Origin: Ignavibacteriota bacterium
GTDB lineage: Bacteria > Bacteroidota > Ignavibacteria > UBA10030 > UBA6906
Reading direction: 5' to 3'
Assembly: GCA_003157485.1 (NCBI GenBank)
Contig: PMJQ01000099.1
Location: 5,660 to 69,659, forward strand
DNA: 64,000 nt
The first letter of the stretch is position 1, and each line of letters starts with the position of its first letter. The notes under the pieces were generated by a model. That model was not told where the DNA came from. It did not search any database and saw nothing but the letters and a program-made list of their open reading frames with translations. Below, one piece after another: positions 45,542-61,916 of this stretch. Made by a program: the position numbers and the translations under genes.

Positions 45542-46903
45542 ATGTCAACTTCCAGACAGACCCGCCAGGTCTATATAGAGACGTACGGATGCCAGATGAA
45601 TGTTGCCGACTCAGAAGTTGTCGGGGGCATTCTCAAGACTTCCGGCTACTCGCTAACAGAGGACCTCGCCGGGGCGGATGTTGTGCTTGTCAACACCTGC
45701 GCCATCAGAGAGAACGCCGAGCAGAGAATCTACGGCCGCATCGGACTCTTTGGCACGTACAAACGACGGAACCCCGGCATGCTCATAGGAGTGCTTGGAT
45801 GCATGGCGGAGCGGCTCCGGTTAAGCCTCCTCGAAGATGACCTGGTGGATCTGGTTGTAGGACCGGACGAATACAGGAAACTGCCGGGTTTGATGGAAAG
45901 AGCCCTTGAGGGAGAGCAGGGAATCGCCGTGCGTCTCTCCCGTGTGGAGAACTACGACGACATTACACCGCTCCGGACTGATGGTGTATGCGCATGGCTC
46001 TCCGTCATGCGCGGCTGTGACAAGTTCTGCACGTTCTGTGTCGTCCCCTTCACGCGTGGGAGGGAGCGAAGCCGGTCTGTGGAAAGCATCGTCCGCGAGG
46101 TCGTTGATCTTTCAAGCCAGGGTTTAAAGGAAGTCACATTGCTCGGCCAGAACGTGAACTCCTTCAGGGACGGAGAGCGCGACTTCGCCGATCTTATGCA
46201 GGAAGTTGCCGCGGTTGACCGCACGATGAGGATTCGCTTCACGACGTCGCATCCGCAGGACATGTCCGGCCGCCTGATCGATGTGATCGCCGGAGAGGAG
46301 AACATCTGCAACTACGTTCACCTCCCCGTGCAATCCGGCTCGGACAGGATCCTCGGTCTCATGAACCGGACGTACACCGTCGATCACTACCGGCGCCTGA
46401 TCGGAAGGATCCGGGAGACGATCCCCGGAGTGGCGGTCAGCACAGACATTATTTCCGGTTTTCCCACAGAAACTGAGGACGATCACCGCATGACGGTTGA
46501 CCTTCTCACCGAGATCCGTTTTGACGGTGCGTTTACCTTCAAGTACTCGGCGCGCGAGCGCACGAAAGCCTGGGAGATGGAGGACAACATACCGGAAGAG
46601 GAAAAGGGGAAGCGCGTCTGGGAAATCACGGAATTGCAGCACGCCATCGCTCTTGAACAGAACAGGAATCTCATCGGGACCGCGGTGCGTGTTCTCGTGG
46701 AAGGGCCGAGCAGAAAGTCCCCGTATGAGTACACCGGACGGACGGAAACGAGCAGGACCGTCGTGTTCCCCCACGCCGACGAACAGCCCGGTGAATACGC
46801 CGAAATACGGATTGATCGCGCAAATTCGGCAACACTGTTCGGCCGGCGGACGGGCGACGTAAGCGGCGCCGCGCCGCAATCTCTCCGGGAGAGTGCAGCA
46901 TGA
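45542..46903 (+). CDS. miaB: tRNA methylthiotransferase MiaB family (radical SAM + TRAM)
   Basis: N-terminal UPF0004 Cys triad (YIETYGCQMN), radical-SAM CDKFCTFC, and a C-terminal TRAM domain. Confidence 0.88.
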   Translation: MSTSRQTRQVYIETYGCQMNVADSEVVGGILKTSGYSLTEDLAGADVVLVNTCAIRENAEQRIYGRIGLFGTYKRRNPGMLIGVLGCMAERLRLSLLEDDLVDLVVGPDEYRKLPGLMERALEGEQGIAVRLSRVENYDDITPLRTDGVCAWLSVMRGCDKFCTFCVVPFTRGRERSRSVESIVREVVDLSSQGLKEVTLLGQNVNSFRDGERDFADLMQEVAAVDRTMRIRFTTSHPQDMSGRLIDVIAGEENICNYVHLPVQSGSDRILGLMNRTYTVDHYRRLIGRIRETIPGVAVSTDIISGFPTETEDDHRMTVDLLTEIRFDGAFTFKYSARERTKAWEMEDNIPEEEKGKRVWEITELQHAIALEQNRNLIGTAVRVLVEGPSRKSPYEYTGRTETSRTVVFPHADEQPGEYAEIRIDRANSATLFGRRTGDVSGAAPQSLRESAA

Positions 46904-47604
46904 AACATCCGGTTGTTGTCCTCCTTCTCGTCCTGGCGGCCCCGCTCCTGCGGGCTCAGAACGCTGACGCGGATGTGACAAAATATCTGGCAATGATTCA
47001 GGATGGCCAGATCGAGCAGGTGAAGGCGGAAATCCCCTCGCTTCTCACGCGGTATCCGAACAATCCCGGTGTCCTCTACCTGCAGGCCCAGACGACGAGT
47101 GAAGGGGCCGAGGCGGTCCGCATTTATCAGAGCATTGTCGACAATTTTCCTTCAAGCGGTTGGGCGCCCGAGGCGCTGTTCAGGGTCTACCAGTTCTATT
47201 ACGCTCTCGGCCTGTACCGGACGGCCGAATTGAAAATGGCGCAGCTGAAAAAGAATTATCCCGTGTCGAAACGGGCGACGGGGACGGGAGAAGTTGACAC
47301 CGGTTCGCTTCCCGAAGACTTGTCGCGGTCTCCCGCCGCCGGAACTCCCGCGGGCACGCACGACTCTGCGTCCGCACATTTCACCCTGCAGGTCGGCGCG
47401 TACACAACCCAGGCAAATGCGGAAAAACAGAAATCGTTTTTCGAGGGACTCGGCTACGCGGTGGAATTGATAAGTCGCGTAAAGGAGAACAGGTCGCTGT
47501 ATCTTGTCCTCGTCGGCAACTACGCAAGCGCGGAGGAGGCCAAAGCGCGGGGAGCGGAGATCAAGGAAAAATTTCGTATCGATTCGATCGTCACGTCGAA
47601 CTGA
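46900..47604 (+). CDS. TPR + SPOR-domain (peptidoglycan-binding) protein
   Basis: Signal peptide, and a C-terminal SPOR domain (FTLQVGAYTTQANAEKQKSFFEGLGYAVELI...YLVLVGNYASAEEAKA). Confidence 0.75.
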   Translation: MKHPVVVLLLVLAAPLLRAQNADADVTKYLAMIQDGQIEQVKAEIPSLLTRYPNNPGVLYLQAQTTSEGAEAVRIYQSIVDNFPSSGWAPEALFRVYQFYYALGLYRTAELKMAQLKKNYPVSKRATGTGEVDTGSLPEDLSRSPAAGTPAGTHDSASAHFTLQVGAYTTQANAEKQKSFFEGLGYAVELISRVKENRSLYLVLVGNYASAEEAKARGAEIKEKFRIDSIVTSN

Positions 47605-54437: not shown

Positions 54438-55148
54438 TTACCGGACGAGGGCCAGCATCTCCTTGACGGCCCGATCAAGACCCACAAACAGCGCGCGCAC
54501 GATCACCGCGTGTCCGATGCTCACCTCCTCGATGTCCGCGAGCGTTCGGAAAGGAATCAAGTTGAGATAATTCAGCCCGTGCCCCGCATTCACGCCGAGC
54601 CCGAGTCCGCGCGCCAGGCGTGACGATTCCCGCACGGTGTCCAGGCGCGTGCGATGTTCTTCCTCCGTGCGCGCATTGGCGAAGGCGCCAGTATGAATCT
54701 CGATCGTGTCAGCGCCGGCCTGCTTCGCGGCCTCAATCTGCTCCCGCAGGGGATCGATAAAGAGGCTCACCCGGATCCCGTGGTCCTTCAGACGCGAAAC
54801 GACGCCCCGCACGCGCTCCATGTTCCCCCGCACATCAAGCCCCCCCTCCGTTGTCAGTTCCTGCCGCCGCTCTGGAACGAGCGTTGCAAGCTCGGGTCGC
54901 GTCGCGATCGCGATGGCGACGATCTCGTCGGTCGCGGCCATCTCCAGGTCGAGCTTTGTTTTTACGGTCTCTTTCAGGAGGCGCAGATCCCTGTCGTTGA
55001 TATGCCTCCGGTCCTCCCGCAGGTGGCACACGATGCCGTCCGCGCCGGCAAGCTCGCACAGATGTGCCGCTGTTACCGGATCTGGCTCGTTTCCGCCCCG
55101 GGCCTGGCGCAGCGTGGCAACATGGTCGATGTTGATGGAAAGTTTCAT
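54438..55148 (-). CDS. pdxJ: Pyridoxine 5'-phosphate synthase
   Basis: MKLSINIDHVATLRQARGG... canonical PdxJ; 236 aa. Confidence 0.93.
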   Translation of the reverse strand: MKLSINIDHVATLRQARGGNEPDPVTAAHLCELAGADGIVCHLREDRRHINDRDLRLLKETVKTKLDLEMAATDEIVAIAIATRPELATLVPERRQELTTEGGLDVRGNMERVRGVVSRLKDHGIRVSLFIDPLREQIEAAKQAGADTIEIHTGAFANARTEEEHRTRLDTVRESSRLARGLGLGVNAGHGLNYLNLIPFRTLADIEEVSIGHAVIVRALFVGLDRAVKEMLALVR

Positions 55149-56068
55149 AGGCGTTTTCGGACGATATACTGAAGATGATCCGGTCGTTTTGTCACAAGCT
55201 GGACGCCGGCGGGACAGGCAACTTCCGCATCGATGGCGCCGGTGGAGTCGGCGGCAATCTCCGTATACGATGTTTCAACGCGAAAGTCCGTTGCGCTGAG
55301 TACAGACAGCTGCCGGATTCCCGCCCGCACCACGATTTCGATACGCGGCGGGATAAGGATCACTTCCCTGTTCGCAGGCACGGCGGACACCTGCACTGGA
55401 AGTCCCGGGATGATCTTTTCGGCGAAGGGTTCGACGGAGATGGCGATGCGCACGGCGGGAACCGAGAACGCTATCTCGAACGGGTCGGCGGATGCTAGCG
55501 GGACTTCAGCGTCAAGCGAACCCCTGATGTTCTCGAATACCCGGCGCTCCGTCTTCCAGCTGTCAAGGCCGCGCAGAACTGTTTCCGCGCCGGTCAGCGT
55601 CACGCTGTCCGGGGCCACGGAAGTTGGTCCGACCTGTCCGTACCCCTCCCGGAAGCTCGCTAGGCAGTCAAGAACCACGGGAACCCGTTTGCGTACGGAA
55701 GTACCCAGCTCGATCCGGAGCGAATCGGGCTTGACGTCGAGGAGTCTCACTCCCGGGGCGAGGGAGATATGATCTGCAAAATCATTGAATGTAAGGGGCC
55801 GGCGGCTTGAGGGGAGCGATGCCGCAGAGAGGGTGATGACGGGTGCGCGCCCGAGAAGCACGCCCGCAAGCCGCCAGCCTTCCCCGCGGAAACGGAGCTG
55901 CAACGTGTGCGGGAGTGGCGTCTGCACTGCCATACCGGGGGGGATCTCCTGGAGCACGAACGGCACGGCGACGGTGGTTTCGTAGTCCTCGCGCATGGTG
56001 ACGGAAACCCATGCCAGCACGCCGAAGAGGGTGGAGAAAATCACGATATAAAGGGAGCGTTGCTGCAT
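55145..56068 (-). CDS. YbbR-like domain protein (CdaR-like)
   Basis: N-terminal TM followed by repeated beta-rich YbbR-like modules. Its stop overlaps the pdxJ start by 4 nt. Confidence 0.6.
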   Translation of the reverse strand: MQQRSLYIVIFSTLFGVLAWVSVTMREDYETTVAVPFVLQEIPPGMAVQTPLPHTLQLRFRGEGWRLAGVLLGRAPVITLSAASLPSSRRPLTFNDFADHISLAPGVRLLDVKPDSLRIELGTSVRKRVPVVLDCLASFREGYGQVGPTSVAPDSVTLTGAETVLRGLDSWKTERRVFENIRGSLDAEVPLASADPFEIAFSVPAVRIAISVEPFAEKIIPGLPVQVSAVPANREVILIPPRIEIVVRAGIRQLSVLSATDFRVETSYTEIAADSTGAIDAEVACPAGVQLVTKRPDHLQYIVRKRL

Positions 56069-56073
56069 CGGCC

Positions 56074-56114
56074 GGGGAAAACAAAAAGACCCCGCCGGAG
56101 AAAACCTGCGGAGT
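56074..56114 (-). terminator. Intrinsic terminator after the BMC-H gene pair
   Basis: On the minus strand an 8-bp stem with one G-U pair (GACUCCGC / GCGGGGUC) and a 12-nt loop is followed directly by CUUUUUGUUUU. It starts about 20 nt after the stop of 56133..56663. Confidence 0.5.
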
Positions 56115-56132
56115 CGGTCGTCAGAAGCGGGT

Positions 56133-56663
56133 TCAGTTGCCGGCCCGCTTCTTCATGAGTTCGTGAATGAGGACGTCCTTGTTTGCCATCGAGATCTCCC
56201 GTCCCTGGATGGAGAGACCCTCGGTATTCCTCGCGAGACTCCTGAGCTGGTGGACCGTCATAGTGTCGAGCTGCGAGCGGAATTCCACGTCGTCATCACT
56301 TGCGACAAAATCAAATTTCTCCTCATCCCCATCCGGAATCTCAGAAGGGGTCTCGCCCGGAACCGTCCCGGGCTCCGCACCGCGGAGCGCCCGCCGGGAG
56401 AGAATATCTTCGAGATCATCCGATGGGCGCGGGATGACGTGCGTGGAGACAAGCTCACCCACCCTCCGGGCGGCGGCTGCGCCAGCATCGACGGCGGCCT
56501 TCACCGCCGCCACCTCGCCGATCACCTGGACAGTCACCAGTCCGTTGCGGATATACTCCGTCCCCAGCAGGGAGACGTTGGCGGTCTTCATCATGACGTC
56601 GGCGGCCTCGATCGATCCGACGAGGCCGCGTGTCTCAATCATTCCCAGGGCGTAGTCAAGCAT
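56133..56663 (-). CDS. BMC-H microcompartment shell protein with ~85-aa C-terminal extension (acidic linker + Rho_N/SAP-like helix-hairpin)
   Basis: Residues 1-90 form a canonical Pfam00936 BMC domain ([30 protein letters not shown]...VHVIPRP). The tail (...[18 protein letters not shown]...[42 protein letters not shown]) fits the Rho N-terminal/SAP-like L..L..LA...G.......K.DLI..L pattern. Confidence 0.85.
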
Positions 56664-56666
56664 GGG

Positions 56667-56963
56667 TCATTTTGCTGCGGGGCGCCGCGGGAGGATCATC
56701 TCCACATCGGCATGGGGACGGGGAATGACGTGAACGGACACGAGTTCGCCGACTCGCTGCGCGGCAGCAGCGCCCGCGTCCGTGGCCGCCTTCACCGCGC
56801 CGACGTCCCCCCGCACCATCACCGTCACATAACCTCCGCCGATGACTTCCTTGCCGATCAACTGCACCCGCGCCGCCTTCACCATGGCATCGGCGGCCTC
56901 GATCGATCCCACGAGACCTTTCGTCTCCACCATACCGAGTGCGTCTAATGAGATGTCCGCCAT
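56667..56963 (-). CDS. BMC-H microcompartment shell protein (PduA/EutM/CcmK-type)
   Basis: 98 aa nearly collinear with PduA ([30 protein letters not shown]...[43 protein letters not shown]). An AAGGAG RBS sits 3 nt upstream. Confidence 0.92.
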
Positions 56964-57015: not shown

Positions 57016-57044
57016 AATATACCCAAGGTGTTGCACATTGTCAA
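57016..57044 (-). promoter_or_regulatory. Near-consensus sigma70-like promoter (TTGACA-17 nt-TATATT) driving the BMC-H pair
   Basis: On the minus strand TTGACA (57044-57039) and TATATT (57021-57016) are separated by exactly 17 nt. The element is directly after the YfhO stop and about 45 nt upstream of the BMC-H RBS, and a short hairpin (CCCCG...CGGGG) lies in the leader. Confidence 0.45.
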
Positions 57045-57051
57045 CCGCGCA

Positions 57052-59595
57052 TCACGCGGTGGCGCTTCCCCCTGCCGGCCTGTCCGTACCGGAAGGAGAC
57101 GCACGTCGTTTCAGCGTCTGTCGCCGCCAGAACCCCGCCGCCGCGCAGATCAGAACAACGCCCCATGCAGCGTGCGTCAGCACCCAGCCGGCGCGGTACA
57201 TCGGCGGATCGAACGTAAAGACCAGCTCGTGCGTTCCTCCGGGGACGAGAACCGAGCGGAGGATATAGTCCGTCCGGAAAATCTCCGTCTCCGTTCCGTC
57301 GATGAACGCCTTCCAGCCGGAGGGGTAGTACACTTCGCTCAGCACAAGGAGAGCGGGTGCAGGAACGTCCGTGGCGATCCGGATTTCACGGGATTTGTAC
57401 GAGGTGATGCGGGGGGCGTGGGTGCTGTCTGCCGGAACGATCTCCCCGGGGAGTCGTTTATACAGAACGGCCGTGCGCGCCGGATCGAATCCCCGGGAAT
57501 TCAGGATGCGAAACACTTCGTCATCGTCCGCCGCCATCACCGACTCCGCTGCGTAAAATGCGCGGGGCAGTGCGGCGGGATTCCTGTACGTGAGAACCCG
57601 TTCGGCCTGGTCCACGTTCACGAGCTGGAACTGCGGCTCCGGGAGCCTTCCGTGGACGACAAGAAACTGCACGTTGAGCATATCCACGACATTCATGTTA
57701 ACGGGAAACGACGGATCGGTCCCCCTGTACATGCAGGAATCCAATAGCGTCTGGTAGATCTTGAGTTTTGCGGGGCTGTACCCCGTAATCGACTGAAGGC
57801 CGTGGTAGGCGAACGCATTGTCCATGTACAACGGATCGCGCGGATCGATCCCCGCAAAGAGACGGAACAGCCCCGGCTGGCTCTTGAGAAACGTCGTCGT
57901 GGGGTCGGGCCGGAATGCCTGCGCGAGTTCCTGGGAAGGCTTCGGGTCGATAAACCGCGACGCGACAAGGGACAGATCGATTGTTACGAGGACGAGGAGT
58001 GCCGCGGAAAACGTCAGCTCGCGAAGGCGGCCTTTCAGCCAGGCGCAGCAGAGCGCGCAGAGGGCGGCGGCGAGGAGTGAGAACTTCACGTAGTCCTTCC
58101 AGAAAATGTCAAAACGCGCCTGCCGGAGTTGTGCGATCACGCGGCCCGCGCGCGCGCCGTACTGCTGCTGGATCTGCTCGGCCTGATCCTGCTTCGTGAA
58201 CATCGATGCGGGAAGACTCTCGAGAAGACTATTCTGGAACAGAAGTGCGACAACGAGGAGCCCCGCGATGACCCCGCCCGCGGCAAGGAGGACGCGGTAG
58301 AGCTTCTGCGCATCGACGCCCGATTCCCGTTCGCGTGTAGCAAGAAGGGCGGAGAACCCCGTCGCGCCCAGAACGCCCGTGGCAAACGGGAGAAGGTGAA
58401 GAATCTGCTCCGGCGCGCGGAACTTGTTGAAAAAGGGAAGCCACGTGAACAGCAGTTGATACAGAAGCGAAAAATTGCTGCCGAAGGAAACCAGGATAAT
58501 CAGGATTGTAACAACGCCGAAAAACATGACGAAGCGCGTCCTGCGGTACACAAACGCAAGTGTCCCGAACAGGATCGGGAAGAGCCCCACATACACACTG
58601 GAATTCGTCCAGGGGATCATCGGCCCCCAGTAGAAATCCGATTTCATCCCGAAGAAGCCGGGGATCAGCAGCGTGATGAGTTCTCCCGGGTGCCATGACC
58701 AGTTTGTCGCGTAATCGTAGGCAAGCCCCCCCGGCGCTCCCGCCGTCCCCCCCCCGCGCATGGAGAACTGCGCATAGTCATACACCGACAGATAGATGTA
58801 GGAGGAAATGCAGAATCCCAGGAGAATTGCGCCGGCGAACAGCGCCACCTTGAAGGCGGCCTTCGGAATGTTCCCTTTGAAATCCGGCAGGATATGATAG
58901 ACAAGGTAGAGCCCGAGAAACATGAAGGCGTAATACACGATCTGCATGTGGTTCGTGAGCATCAGCGTCCCGATGGCCGCCGCCAAGAGTCCCAGGCTCA
59001 GCGCGTCGCGCCGTTCCAGAAGGGAGTGCGTGAGAAGAACGACGAGGGGAAAATAACTGAGTGCCATAAGCTTCGAACCGTGCCCTTCGCCGGCAAGTCC
59101 CACCATGTAAGGGCTGAGCATAAACGTCAGCGCGGCAAGCAGCGCTGCGGGACGGGAAAAATTCCAGACCCTCATAAGGAAGAACATGAACACGCCGCCC
59201 ATGAAACAGTAGACGACAAGCCAGGTCCATGTACCGTTCAGATAGAGAAGGTTGAGAACGGTCTGGAGAACGGTCTGCACATAGCTCACGTTGTGCGGGA
59301 GATAGGCGACATTGCCGAACGTCGGCATGCCGCTGAAAAAATACGGCATCCAGACAGCGTCAACCCCTTCCGCTTTCTCGATCTCGTTTCCGGCGTGTGT
59401 GTAACTGAAGGCCGCGGCAGTGTCGCCCTGGGAGGCAAACGCGGCGTTGTCGAAGATGATCCCGCGGAAGACAATCAGCGTCACCGCGTACAGCAGAGCG
59501 ACGCTGAGGAGGTCAAGCGTCAGCGGGGAAAGCGATGAAAACGGAGAGGCCGGTTTCTCCGAGGCCCTGCGGTGGTCTTTCCTGGCGTGTGCCAT
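57052..59595 (-). CDS. YfhO-family polytopic membrane glycosyltransferase-like protein
   Basis: 847 aa with about 13 N-terminal TM helices and a large C-terminal extracytoplasmic domain. The N-terminal third matches the YfhO pattern. Confidence 0.75.
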   Translation of the reverse strand: MAHARKDHRRASEKPASPFSSLSPLTLDLLSVALLYAVTLIVFRGIIFDNAAFASQGDTAAAFSYTHAGNEIEKAEGVDAVWMPYFFSGMPTFGNVAYLPHNVSYVQTVLQTVLNLLYLNGTWTWLVVYCFMGGVFMFFLMRVWNFSRPAALLAALTFMLSPYMVGLAGEGHGSKLMALSYFPLVVLLTHSLLERRDALSLGLLAAAIGTLMLTNHMQIVYYAFMFLGLYLVYHILPDFKGNIPKAAFKVALFAGAILLGFCISSYIYLSVYDYAQFSMRGGGTAGAPGGLAYDYATNWSWHPGELITLLIPGFFGMKSDFYWGPMIPWTNSSVYVGLFPILFGTLAFVYRRTRFVMFFGVVTILIILVSFGSNFSLLYQLLFTWLPFFNKFRAPEQILHLLPFATGVLGATGFSALLATRERESGVDAQKLYRVLLAAGGVIAGLLVVALLFQNSLLESLPASMFTKQDQAEQIQQQYGARAGRVIAQLRQARFDIFWKDYVKFSLLAAALCALCCAWLKGRLRELTFSAALLVLVTIDLSLVASRFIDPKPSQELAQAFRPDPTTTFLKSQPGLFRLFAGIDPRDPLYMDNAFAYHGLQSITGYSPAKLKIYQTLLDSCMYRGTDPSFPVNMNVVDMLNVQFLVVHGRLPEPQFQLVNVDQAERVLTYRNPAALPRAFYAAESVMAADDDEVFRILNSRGFDPARTAVLYKRLPGEIVPADSTHAPRITSYKSREIRIATDVPAPALLVLSEVYYPSGWKAFIDGTETEIFRTDYILRSVLVPGGTHELVFTFDPPMYRAGWVLTHAAWGVVLICAAAGFWRRQTLKRRASPSGTDRPAGGSATA

Positions 59596-59598
59596 GTG

Positions 59599-60735
59599 TT
59601 ACGATCCTTCCAGTTGGAGAAGTGCTGAACACTCACGGGCGCGGACGTCCCAGTCATTCTCTGCCGCAAACGCGGTCAGTGTGCGGATGAACGTGCTGTC
59701 CCCTCTCCTGCGTACTGCAGTGCGGATATGACCCGCGAATTCGCGATCCGTCCCGGCGATGAGAACAATGCCGCCGAATTCCCTGGTGTCGTCTGAAAAA
59801 TCGGTGGCCACCGTCGGCACTCCGGCGGCGCTGTACTCGTAGAGCTTGACGGGATTCACCCCTTCCGTCAGAAGCGTCCGTTTGAACGGGATCATCGCGG
59901 CGTCGAGATTCCTCATATACGCCGGCACGTCGGCGTAGGGCCTCTGCCCCAGAAACAGGAAATTCGGGTGCTTGGCGAGACGGGCCATCTCGTGTGTCAC
60001 GGCGGGATGGAGCGGTCCGACCATGACGAACCTGAAATCCGCCATCGCGCCGATCGTCGTGTCGAGAAGGTCGAAATCAATCCACGGATAGATCGAGCCC
60101 ACATACCCCACGACCGGCGGTCCCGCCGGGGGAAGGTCTGGCGGTCTGGCGGCTTCAGCCGCAAACCGCTCAAACTCCACGCCGTTGCGGACGACGTGAA
60201 CCTCCCGCACGCGGGCTTCCAGCACCCGCCTGCGAAGCGTCGGCGACGTCACGCTGACCGCGTCGGCACGGTCAAGCGCCCGGAGCCACTCATCGTGAAC
60301 GTGAGGAGGAAATGCAGTGAAGCCGAACGCATCATCAATGTAATCAAACAGCACCCGCTTCGTGCTGACGGCATCGGCGACGTGCATGAGTTGGAAGTTT
60401 TCGACGAGACAGACCGTCTCGCCTCCGGCCCGCCGGACCGCCCGGCGGACGAGTGCGCGTTGCAGCGCGGACACGAGGAACCGGAGCGCGCGCGAGCGGC
60501 TGAGAAACACTGCGGCACGACGGATCCGGACGTTGCGCGCATTGAGGGGGAATGCCGGGACCGTCATGCGGCGGAGGCGGGGCCCCACCGGCTTCGGCGA
60601 GAACATGACACGCCGTCCCAGTGTCACCGGCTCGACCCACAGGACGTCCATCGTTCGCGACATTCTCGTCGCAAGGTGCTGTGGGCGCTGGTAAAGGCTG
60701 TCCCACGCAATATCGGAAAAAAAAATCAGAGTCAC
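59599..60735 (-). CDS. GT4-family (GT-B) glycosyltransferase
   Basis: C-terminal EX7E-type motif (NPVKLYEYSAAGVPTVATD) and TuaH/WcaL-like architecture. Confidence 0.78.
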   Translation of the reverse strand: MTLIFFSDIAWDSLYQRPQHLATRMSRTMDVLWVEPVTLGRRVMFSPKPVGPRLRRMTVPAFPLNARNVRIRRAAVFLSRSRALRFLVSALQRALVRRAVRRAGGETVCLVENFQLMHVADAVSTKRVLFDYIDDAFGFTAFPPHVHDEWLRALDRADAVSVTSPTLRRRVLEARVREVHVVRNGVEFERFAAEAARPPDLPPAGPPVVGYVGSIYPWIDFDLLDTTIGAMADFRFVMVGPLHPAVTHEMARLAKHPNFLFLGQRPYADVPAYMRNLDAAMIPFKRTLLTEGVNPVKLYEYSAAGVPTVATDFSDDTREFGGIVLIAGTDREFAGHIRTAVRRRGDSTFIRTLTAFAAENDWDVRARECSALLQLEGS

Positions 60736-61916
60736 AGCGATCTTCTGACCTCTTCGACAATCGTACGAAGGTGCGGACTGATGGCGGCGGGCTCGAACAT
60801 ATGCCGCATCATCAGGATATTTCTGCGCTGGCGTGCGTAACGAGAGAGCGGGAATTCGTTCATCACGGAACGGATACAGTCACAGACATCCTGATAGGTA
60901 TCGCACAGGTAACCGATATCGCCCATCCTGGCAAAACACTCTTCAAGGTACGGATTGCGGAGATAAATTCCGGGTTTCACGCTTGAAATCGCGTCGAGGA
61001 AGCTTGTGCTCGCTCCGACGCGGTAGACATTCGGGTCGGTGAGGGAGACCGCATACGTCACCTCTTCTGCGCGCCGGGCGTACTCGGCCTGTGTGAGCGG
61101 GGCGACCGGGAAATCCTCCTGCATCCGAGCATAGCGCCTCCGGTCGGCCTCTGTGCTGAGGTGTCCGACCATCATGAACCGGGATTCAGGGAATTCTTCA
61201 CGGATCTGGGTGGCGAGCGCCACGAATCTGTCAAATCCCTTCCCTCTCCCCCCGCTGACCCCGAAATAGCCGAACCGCACCGGCGAAGGCGCCACCTGCG
61301 TTTCCGGCAGTTCGTGCACCGTCCAGGAAAACGGTATCTCGAATGCCACAGTGCTGTGCGCCGCCCCCGGCTGAAATTCTCTCAGGGAGCGGAGTATAGA
61401 CTCCCCCAGCGCGACATATCTGAGCCGGCGGGGCTGTGGGAGGCGAAACACAAGCCGCATTCCCCGAAGTGATGAAAACCGTTTCCGTGGCGCGCCGGGG
61501 ATGACGGTCGCCAGGACCCCATGCATCACTGCAAACACAGGCACGGGGTGCCTGCTCCCTGCAAGCTGGATCTTCAGTATGAAGAAACCGATCTCTGTTG
61601 CGGACGAAAACAGGACAAGAGATGCGTGCTCCTGCGAGGCAACACGAAGCGTTGACCGGACTGCCTTCCATTCGGCTCCGAACCTGCCGGGACCGGAAGA
61701 CTGGCGGGGAGGTATGGAGAGTTCCCGCCACTCCACGCGGCTGAAATCCTCCGGAGCCTGTTCTTCGAGAAGTTCCCGGACGCGTGCTGCATGTCCCGGT
61801 TCGCCGAGAAAAATCACCGACGATTCCCGGAAGGCGAGGAGCACGGTGTGCACAAGCGAAGCATTCACGCGGGAATGCTCGAAATCCCGGCACTGGGGCT
61901 CACTGATGATTATCAC
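60732..61916 (-). CDS. Hypothetical protein, possible divergent GT-B glycosyltransferase
   Basis: 394 aa. The second half resembles a GT-B C-terminal Rossmann start (VRFGYFGVSGGRGKGFDRFVALATQIREEFPESRFMMVGH), but no clear EX7E motif was seen. Confidence 0.4.
   Translation of the reverse strand: MIIISEPQCRDFEHSRVNASLVHTVLLAFRESSVIFLGEPGHAARVRELLEEQAPEDFSRVEWRELSIPPRQSSGPGRFGAEWKAVRSTLRVASQEHASLVLFSSATEIGFFILKIQLAGSRHPVPVFAVMHGVLATVIPGAPRKRFSSLRGMRLVFRLPQPRRLRYVALGESILRSLREFQPGAAHSTVAFEIPFSWTVHELPETQVAPSPVRFGYFGVSGGRGKGFDRFVALATQIREEFPESRFMMVGHLSTEADRRRYARMQEDFPVAPLTQAEYARRAEEVTYAVSLTDPNVYRVGASTSFLDAISSVKPGIYLRNPYLEECFARMGDIGYLCDTYQDVCDCIRSVMNEFPLSRYARQRRNILMMRHMFEPAAISPHLRTIVEEVRRSL

Follow-up and report, generated by a model that had tools for sequence, protein, structure and literature searches.

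The stretch of DNA analyzed here (the window) comprises 64,000 nucleotides of contig PMJQ01000099.1 from an Ignavibacteriota bacterium and carries, on its reverse strand, a pair of adjacent genes for bacterial microcompartment (BMC) shell proteins of the hexameric BMC-H type. The first of these genes codes for a plain BMC-H protein. The second, which is the subject of this study, is an open reading frame (ORF) for 176 residues (56133..56663, - strand, stop codon at 56133-56135, as given in the ORF list of the window) that codes for a BMC-H shell paralogue whose chain continues for some 85 residues past its BMC domain and ends in a small helical domain, referred to below as the tail. This fusion of a BMC-H protein with a tail is real, and it is widespread in the databases. 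A BMC domain followed by an extension of about 85 residues had been proposed for this gene in an earlier note made from the DNA sequence, and this is borne out by the length of the ORF and by the Pfam match at residues 5-80; the two peptides quoted in that note are present verbatim, at residues 111-128 and 135-173.

Four regions can be distinguished in the tailed protein (all coordinates on the - strand). Residues 1-90 (56394..56663) form the BMC-H domain, which has PduA, EutM and the HO BMC-H protein as relatives in the Protein Data Bank (PDB). They are followed by a variable linker rich in proline, glutamate and glycine (residues 91-114, 56322..56393), which is modeled with a low predicted local distance difference test score (pLDDT), and by an acidic/aromatic segment (residues 115-126, 56286..56321), the conservation of which is limited to the close clade. 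The last 50 residues (127-176, 56136..56285) are the tail, a helical domain that is described here as SAP/Rho_N-like, of the helix-extension-helix type, from its fold model, its conservation and the profile matches of its family. Entries for the exact window protein were found in 42 blocks of an assembly collection, and the gene order is identical at the six listed places (metagenome contigs) having this exact protein. Regarding the naming of these proteins, JGI/IMG mislabels the window protein and its relatives as 'microcompartment protein CcmL/EutN', which is the pentamer family PF03319, but the protein is a PF00936 BMC-H protein; the family member of Candidatus Formimonas warabiya is named just "BMC domain-containing protein" by NCBI and UniRef.

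The BMC domain of the tailed protein matches the Pfam BMC profile (PF00936) at residues 5-80 with an E-value of 2.4e-27 and 95.1 bits, versus a cutoff of 24.5 bits, covering profile positions 1-75. The best PDB sequence relatives found with phmmer are BMC-H proteins, being the HO BMC-H tandem fusion, PduA and EutM, all aligned over residues 4-90. There is one non-permuted BMC domain, collinear with PduA and EutM, and tblastn also finds a single domain. The residues important for tiling are preserved in the tailed orthologues when compared using the PduA numbering, with K26 found in 79/80, R79 in 76/80 and P80 in 80/80 sequences, and all three are kept in the window protein. The pore loop is noncanonical and charged, having the sequence Y37-I-R-N-G41 (around 56544-56558, - strand), and the pore pentads of the orthologues are also divergent and charged, such as RTDPA, YIKNG and IVRDG. 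The plain BMC-H partner (56667..56963, - strand, 98 residues, PF00936 with an E-value of 3.4e-29) has the canonical V-I-G-G-G pore. It ends 3 nt upstream of the tailed gene, and the two proteins are 71% identical over the BMC domain. Across 74 species the plain partner is 85% identical, with pores of the type x-[IV]-GGG. Because the pores of the tailed paralogues are charged and noncanonical, whereas the plain partner keeps the x-[IV]-GGG pore, the tail travels together with an altered pore.

To determine the extent of the tail family, 1.84 billion cluster representatives (clusters at 50% identity) were searched exhaustively in HMMER with the tail profile, resulting in 281 clusters at E<=1e-3, of which 16 are at E<=1e-10, with a best E-value of 2.5e-17. 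The tail motif is nearly always at the protein C-terminus in these 281 clusters, and a BMC domain is found in 106 of the 150 family proteins that were scanned, being 149 matches and the window protein. The family is visible only in such an exhaustive search, since a word-indexed protein search with the window tail returned just three close relatives and a word-indexed search with a profile of 97 sequences returned short unnamed fragments only. In the three close relatives, the last 50 or so residues are conserved, together with the acidic segment, FDFVAS.DD.E[FY], but the linker is not.

The conservation of the tail can be summarized by a gap-free motif, L-x2-[ML]-x-V-x2-L-R-x-[LYF]-A-R-x3-G-x2-I-x-G-R-[EQ]-I-S-x-A-N-[KR]-x2-L-[LI]. 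The residues V137, L140, R141, A144, R145, G154, R155, I157, S158, A160 and L165 are conserved at 97-100%, N161 is conserved at 87%, and position 162 is a lysine or an arginine in about 100% of the sequences, such that conservation reaches at least 87% at 13 tail positions among the approximately 150 tails that were analyzed. When 79 species-level orthologues are compared with the window protein, the BMC domain has a fractional identity of 0.65 and the last 50 residues one of 0.57, with values of 0.14 in the linker and 0.18 in the acidic segment between them. Among the ten closest genomes, the identity ranges over 8-42% in the linker, 70-96% in the tail and 50-92% in the acidic/aromatic segment. 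In other Ignavibacteriota clades, the acidic/aromatic segment is replaced by a [YF]-x-x-P-x-x-L-[ST]-acidic sequence, directly before helix 1 of the tail. The acidic/aromatic segment may serve as a short linear motif, or it may cap the tail domain at its N-terminal end.

The linkers of the family are between 5 and 333 residues long and are rich in glutamate, lysine, proline and serine. They are net acidic in 123/185 proteins, and the C-terminal tail region is net positive in 171/185 family members. A subgroup with long linkers (28/240 proteins, including P0022, P0038, P0040, P0046, P0054, P0055, P0057 and P0060) has a second, amphipathic motif in the linker. This motif, [TS]-[IV]-x-R-L-R-x-E-A-L, resembles an encapsulation peptide, and it does not occur in the window protein. 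The tail motif is also not restricted to BMC proteins, since it is present in P0006, a metagenome protein of 205 residues, in which a motif being 64% identical to the window tail is preceded by a hydrophobic N-terminus and followed by a SPOR peptidoglycan-binding domain. In the 64-kb window, including its own SPOR protein (46900-47604, + strand), no second copy of the motif was found.

The fold of the tail was addressed by profile searches and by structure prediction. Scanning 97 family tails singly shows that 57/97 match the Pfam family Rho_N at E<=1 (with a best E-value of 2.3e-6), 24/97 match SAP (PF02037, best E-value 4.1e-4) and 6/97 match FANC_SAP (PF18081). When full-length proteins are used, 17/150 reach Rho_N at E<=0.01. 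The Rho_N gathering score of 24.9 bits is not reached by the window tail or by the sampled members; the best score among these members is 23.3 bits, obtained for the tail of P0025 on Rho_N (PF07498) over profile positions 1-40 of 43, in a protein that also has a BMC domain. It would explain why the tail goes unannotated that the sampled family sits at or just under this threshold. In the AlphaFold2 model calculated with the family alignment, the 50-residue tail has a mean pLDDT of 95.4, with helices at tail residues 2-8, 11-20, 29-33 and 36-48; in the single-sequence model of the whole protein, the pLDDT is below 50 across much of residues 91-120. A Foldseek comparison with the PDB ranks the N-terminal subdomain of Escherichia coli Rho first, with a TMq of about 0.70, a root mean square deviation of 1.5-2.1 Å over 46-47 columns, 19-24% identity and an E-value of about 1-2. 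FAN1 and 3'hExo, which contain SAP domains, rank after Rho. In the BFVD structure search, the top named matches are viral proteins having Rho_N or SAP domains (TMq 0.72-0.79, probability up to 0.95, E-value about 0.5-1). The glycine between the two helices, G154, is invariant, and, in the hhalign comparison, the interhelix loop of the tail is five residues longer than that of Rho and contains the family-specific G-R-[EQ]-I-S motif.

From these comparisons, it is concluded that the tail belongs, in divergent form, to the same helix-extension-helix fold class as SAP and Rho_N, within which it makes up its own subfamily with a longer G-R-[EQ]-I-S loop. The architecture of BMC-H domain, linker and tail, together with the assignment to the SAP/Rho_N fold class, is proposed with high confidence. 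A Rho_N/SAP-like C-terminal region had been claimed in the earlier note, which also called for a profile scan of the tail. The structural side of this claim holds at the level of the family, where Rho_N and SAP are matched and where the fold search places Rho first, with the caveat that the window tail taken by itself has no profile match.

The distribution of the tail was studied by scanning the GTDB species genomes with the pattern GREIS[KMR]ANK, derived from a 10-sequence subset of the tail alignment. This yielded 173 confirmed tailed loci, and therefore at least 173 GTDB species genomes, of which 80 loci were compared over ±10 kb each. In these 80 loci, the motif terminates a BMC-domain ORF of about 150-235 residues, with the sole exception of an ORF truncated at a contig end, and in about 76/80 loci a plain BMC-H gene is directly upstream of the tailed gene. 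The closest locus (L007) is from an Ignavibacteriota metagenome-assembled genome (MAG), having 96% tail identity and the same synteny. The other loci are mostly from Ignavibacteriota or Bacteroidota MAGs, and the rest include Bacillota, Zixibacteria and Fidelibacterota. Among the Bacillota carriers are Candidatus Formimonas warabiya, Dehalobacterium, Desulfitispora and a Lachnospiraceae. In Formimonas warabiya, the tailed gene is part of an EUT-like locus, with genes for EutA, a BMC protein, an EutJ-like protein, a PduS-like protein, a tandem-BMC protein, EutQ, BMC-H, the tailed BMC-H, aldehyde dehydrogenase, PTAC and a permease. In the Lachnospiraceae genome, it is found in a glycyl-radical-enzyme locus, immediately before the aldehyde dehydrogenase gene, and in a Zixibacteria MAG it is near genes for a sigma-54 activator, a PduS-like protein and a tandem-BMC protein.

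The surroundings of the pair in the window are of a different nature. There is no other BMC-domain gene in the 64-kb window, and no further shell gene is found within ±10 kb in about 55 related Ignavibacteriota and Bacteroidota genomes. Upstream of the pair are genes for a YfhO-like membrane protein (57052-59595, - strand) and glycosyltransferases, and downstream are genes for a YbbR-like membrane protein (55145-56068, - strand) and PdxJ (54438-55148, - strand); these are not BMC enzymes. Beyond PdxJ, on the opposite strand, are the genes of a bifunctional nuclease and of ETF. The order YfhO, BMC-H, tailed BMC-H, YbbR-like protein, PdxJ, with the nuclease and ETFab on the other strand, recurs in Ignavibacteriota and Bacteroidota (loci L007-L061). 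This conserved YfhO-PdxJ gene order may reflect function or mere inheritance. A 394-residue ORF between two glycosyltransferase genes (60732-61916, - strand) has no Pfam match at E<=1e-3, and it is without a family on the metagenome contigs as well.

Upstream of the pair, there is a sigma-70-like promoter sequence, TTGACA-17-TATATT (57016..57044, - strand), which is a consensus match only, at 11/12 positions, with 1 site found versus 0.2 expected. A candidate intrinsic terminator, suggested by RNA folding and consisting of a GC-rich hairpin followed by UUUUUGUUUU, is located 18 nt past the stop codon of the tailed gene (56078..56115, - strand). The 72-nt terminator region folds at -23 kcal/mol, with the stem directly before the U-run, and the z-score is only -1.6; a simple terminator scanner detected no terminator at the end of the tailed gene. 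The promoter-like site upstream, together with the hairpin and U-run after the tailed gene, suggests that the pair is a bicistronic unit of its own, separate from the YbbR-like and pdxJ genes.

When these data are taken together, the tailed protein would be a specialized, probably minor, hexameric shell subunit, being co-expressed with the canonical BMC-H protein encoded 3 nt upstream. It would tile into the shell facet via its retained edge residues, with a central pore lined by charge (Arg39-Asn40). The termini of nonpermuted BMC-H proteins are on the concave face of the hexamer, which faces the cytoplasm in the solved recombinant shells, according to a published account (PMC6109187, citing Sutter et al. 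2017), in which it is also pointed out that there is some ambiguity about the orientation of the concave face in native BMCs (PMC6109187). From these published shell structures we infer that the tail is on the exterior, since the C-terminus is on the concave face, and each hexamer would then display six linker-tethered tail domains outside the organelle. The residues Arg141, Arg145, Arg155, Ser158, Asn161 and Lys/Arg162 form a conserved polar, basic surface. The presence of this arginine, lysine, serine and asparagine surface on a SAP-like fold points to a polyanionic ligand, and the ligand is likely to be generic and not pathway-specific, because the same tail accompanies unrelated cargo sets (FRAG-like, EUT-like and glycyl-radical-enzyme). 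It is therefore possible that the basic surface binds a generic polyanion, most likely nucleic acid, such as nucleoid DNA or RNA, and in this way anchors or positions the microcompartment. The probable role of the tail is thus to connect the shell exterior with nucleic acid or some other partner. Taken as a whole, a minor shell subunit with an exterior tail that binds a polyanion, most likely nucleic acid, and so anchors the BMC is considered to be the best explanation, with a probability of roughly one half. That it is nucleic acid that is bound by the tail is put forward more tentatively.

Several observations weigh against this explanation. The window tail alone has no Pfam match, even at E<=10, and no NCBIfam match. 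All Foldseek E-values of the tail are in the range of 0.5-8 and are not significant, as is expected for a query of only 50 residues. Sequence searches of the PDB with tail profiles of 4 and 97 sequences found no Rho or SAP protein, giving chance matches at E-values near 1, and the hhalign comparison of the tail profile with the N-terminus of E. coli Rho gives the expected register at a nonsignificant E-value of 0.17. The net charge of the window tail domain is only about +2, and the segment that precedes it is strongly acidic, and it is equally conceivable that the partner is a basic protein or that the tail is autoinhibited. In Rho itself, the main RNA-binding element is the adjacent OB fold and not the N-terminal helical subdomain.

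The tail could also make protein contacts in place of binding nucleic acid. It would then be an adaptor that connects the outside of the shell with a protein, such as a ParA/McdA-like positioning ATPase, a protein of the cytoskeleton or of a membrane, or a second shell, or that cross-links neighboring BMCs, which is a possible, although rather unlikely, function. The same fold class also makes protein contacts, as is the case for the LEM domain, which binds BAF. The motif of P0006, with a hydrophobic N-terminus on one side and a SPOR domain on the other, implies that it works in envelope-associated contexts, and the synteny of the Ignavibacteriota pair with the membrane proteins YfhO and YbbR-like, as well as the modest net charge of the window tail domain, is also in agreement with an adaptor function. 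However, there is no conserved candidate partner gene that accompanies the tail from phylum to phylum, the YfhO/YbbR synteny is seen in Ignavibacteriota and Bacteroidota only, being absent at the Bacillota, Zixibacteria and Fidelibacterota loci, and there is a single copy of the motif in the window. A different location of the tail, facing the lumen and organizing the cargo as an internal scaffold or encapsulation device, is improbable. Some data on native Pdu BMCs have suggested that lumen enzymes touch the concave face (discussed in PMC6109187), and the long-linker subgroup (28/240) has the T-I-x-R-L-R-x-E-A-L sequence that is similar to an encapsulation peptide, but the solved shells have the concave face and both termini outside (PMC6109187). 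The window protein does not have this amphipathic linker motif, and with cargo sets as unrelated as those of the EUT-like, GRM-like and FRAG loci, the tail cannot recognize one specific enzyme.

BMC-H proteins alone form sheets and tubes, and in Ignavibacteriota the orphan pair could in principle form such structures, having an envelope-related role alongside the YfhO, glycosyltransferase and YbbR-like genes, and no closed organelle. The strong conservation of the YfhO/YbbR-like synteny would be in agreement with this, as would the lack of genes for BMC-P, BMC-T, aldehyde dehydrogenase and any other BMC protein in the 64-kb window and, within ±10 kb, in about 55 related genomes. Such a role is nevertheless quite improbable, as the published FRAG BMCs of Ignavibacteriae have their shell genes scattered over up to six sites, including a BMC-P triplet elsewhere (PMC8217296). 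The promoter-like site and terminator-like hairpin suggest that the pair is its own transcription unit, and the same tailed paralogue is found inside complete metabolosome loci in other phyla. Finally, the tail could be a nonfunctional, disordered extension or an annotation artefact, for which the missing curated profile match of the window tail might be taken as an indication. This is excluded, for all practical purposes, by the conservation and the fold prediction: the motif is shared by 281 clusters, its pLDDT is 95.4, and 13 positions are conserved in at least 87% of about 150 tails. In the earlier note, a tail lacking a profile match and being disordered or unconserved in orthologues had been named as speaking against its proposal; what is found is a tail with a well-defined predicted fold and an identity of 0.57, versus 0.14 for the linker, so that only the missing profile match remains, and this for the window tail.

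The positioning, inheritance and cell connection of metabolosomes other than carboxysomes are poorly understood, and the role of the EutK tail is unexplained. Here, a folded and strongly conserved domain, predicted to be exterior, recurs on specialized BMC-H proteins in at least four phyla and in several BMC types, and it is unannotated. It is conceivable, but rather doubtful, that the tail is a nucleic-acid anchor shared by otherwise unrelated metabolosomes (FRAG, EUT-like and GRM-like), by which the outer side of the shell would be held directly at the nucleoid or at RNA. If true, these organelles would have a built-in, ParA-independent means of positioning and inheritance, and there would be a rationale for nucleic-acid-binding shell tails such as that of EutK. 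The 50-residue domain with its three near-invariant arginines is an easily testable handle, and it also lends itself to use as a display module when shell exteriors are engineered. The tail would, moreover, be a sequence marker of FRAG-type shell gene pairs in Ignavibacteriota and Bacteroidota.

A BMC-H protein with a C-terminal accessory domain is already known as an architecture from EutK and PduK; the version with a SAP/Rho_N-like tail is abundant in public data and undescribed in the literature that was found. No paper was found that connects shell proteins of microcompartments with Rho_N, PF07498 or SAP, and no mention of a Rho_N/SAP-like tail was found in the consulted text of the BMC catalogue or in its 18 supplementary files (PMC8217296). 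The earlier note had suggested that such a tail would be a new tethering or cargo-recruitment device. It is new in the sense that no description was found, and it is not rare, given the 281 clusters and at least 173 GTDB species genomes. Concerning the type of BMC, the shell genes of FRAG BMCs (Sutter et al. 2021) are located at up to six genomic sites, remote from the enzymes, in Ignavibacteriae and related phyla, and these BMCs are defined by a BMC-P triplet elsewhere in the genome (PMC8217296). The window pair fits a FRAG-type BMC by its Ignavibacteriota taxon and by its isolated shell genes, being remote from enzymes and from other shell genes in the 64-kb window and, within ±10 kb, in related genomes.

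The comparison with other proteins having this fold shows similarities as well as differences. Rho_N is also a small helical bundle, with the pattern L..(M/L).V.ELR.LA...G......K..LI, and it is both the best Pfam family and the best PDB fold match of the tails. In contrast to Rho, in which the N-terminal subdomain is followed by an OB-fold RNA-binding domain and a RecA-type ATPase, the tail domain ends the BMC protein and only has the BMC domain at its N-terminal side. The tail shares with SAP and FANC_SAP, which are eukaryotic and reportedly DNA-binding modules, the two amphipathic helices around an invariant glycine and the V.ELR and K..LI signature; it differs by its longer interhelix loop, and the SAP matches of the family are weak (best E-value 4.1e-4), with none for the window tail.

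Within the BMC shell proteins, PduK is similar in being a minor shell component with a C-terminal extension of about 70 residues after its BMC-H domain. In PduK, an Fe-S cluster is bound by cysteines of the tail, and a tail of this type was rejected for the window protein, which has zero cysteines in residues 91-176. EutK of E. coli and Salmonella has a single BMC-H domain, a linker and a small, positively charged helical C-terminal domain, and it is also a minor paralogue beside a canonical BMC-H protein. Its tail is a helix-turn-helix type domain and is said to bind nucleic acid. A tail of the EutK type was also rejected, as the NCBIfam model of EutK (NF012010) is matched only at model positions 4-90 of 166, with 77.7 bits versus a cutoff of 218; the C-terminal EutK domain (model positions of about 100-166) is unmatched in the window protein, and the fold search gave Rho and SAP proteins, not EutK. 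If it binds nucleic acid, the tail would be a functional analogue of the nucleic-acid-binding tail of EutK. The likeness extends to the gene pair: with a tailed paralogue that keeps its tiling residues and has an altered pore, and a partner that is canonical and strongly conserved, the pair looks like a major canonical tile together with a specialized minor tile, as in EutM/EutK or PduA-J/PduK.

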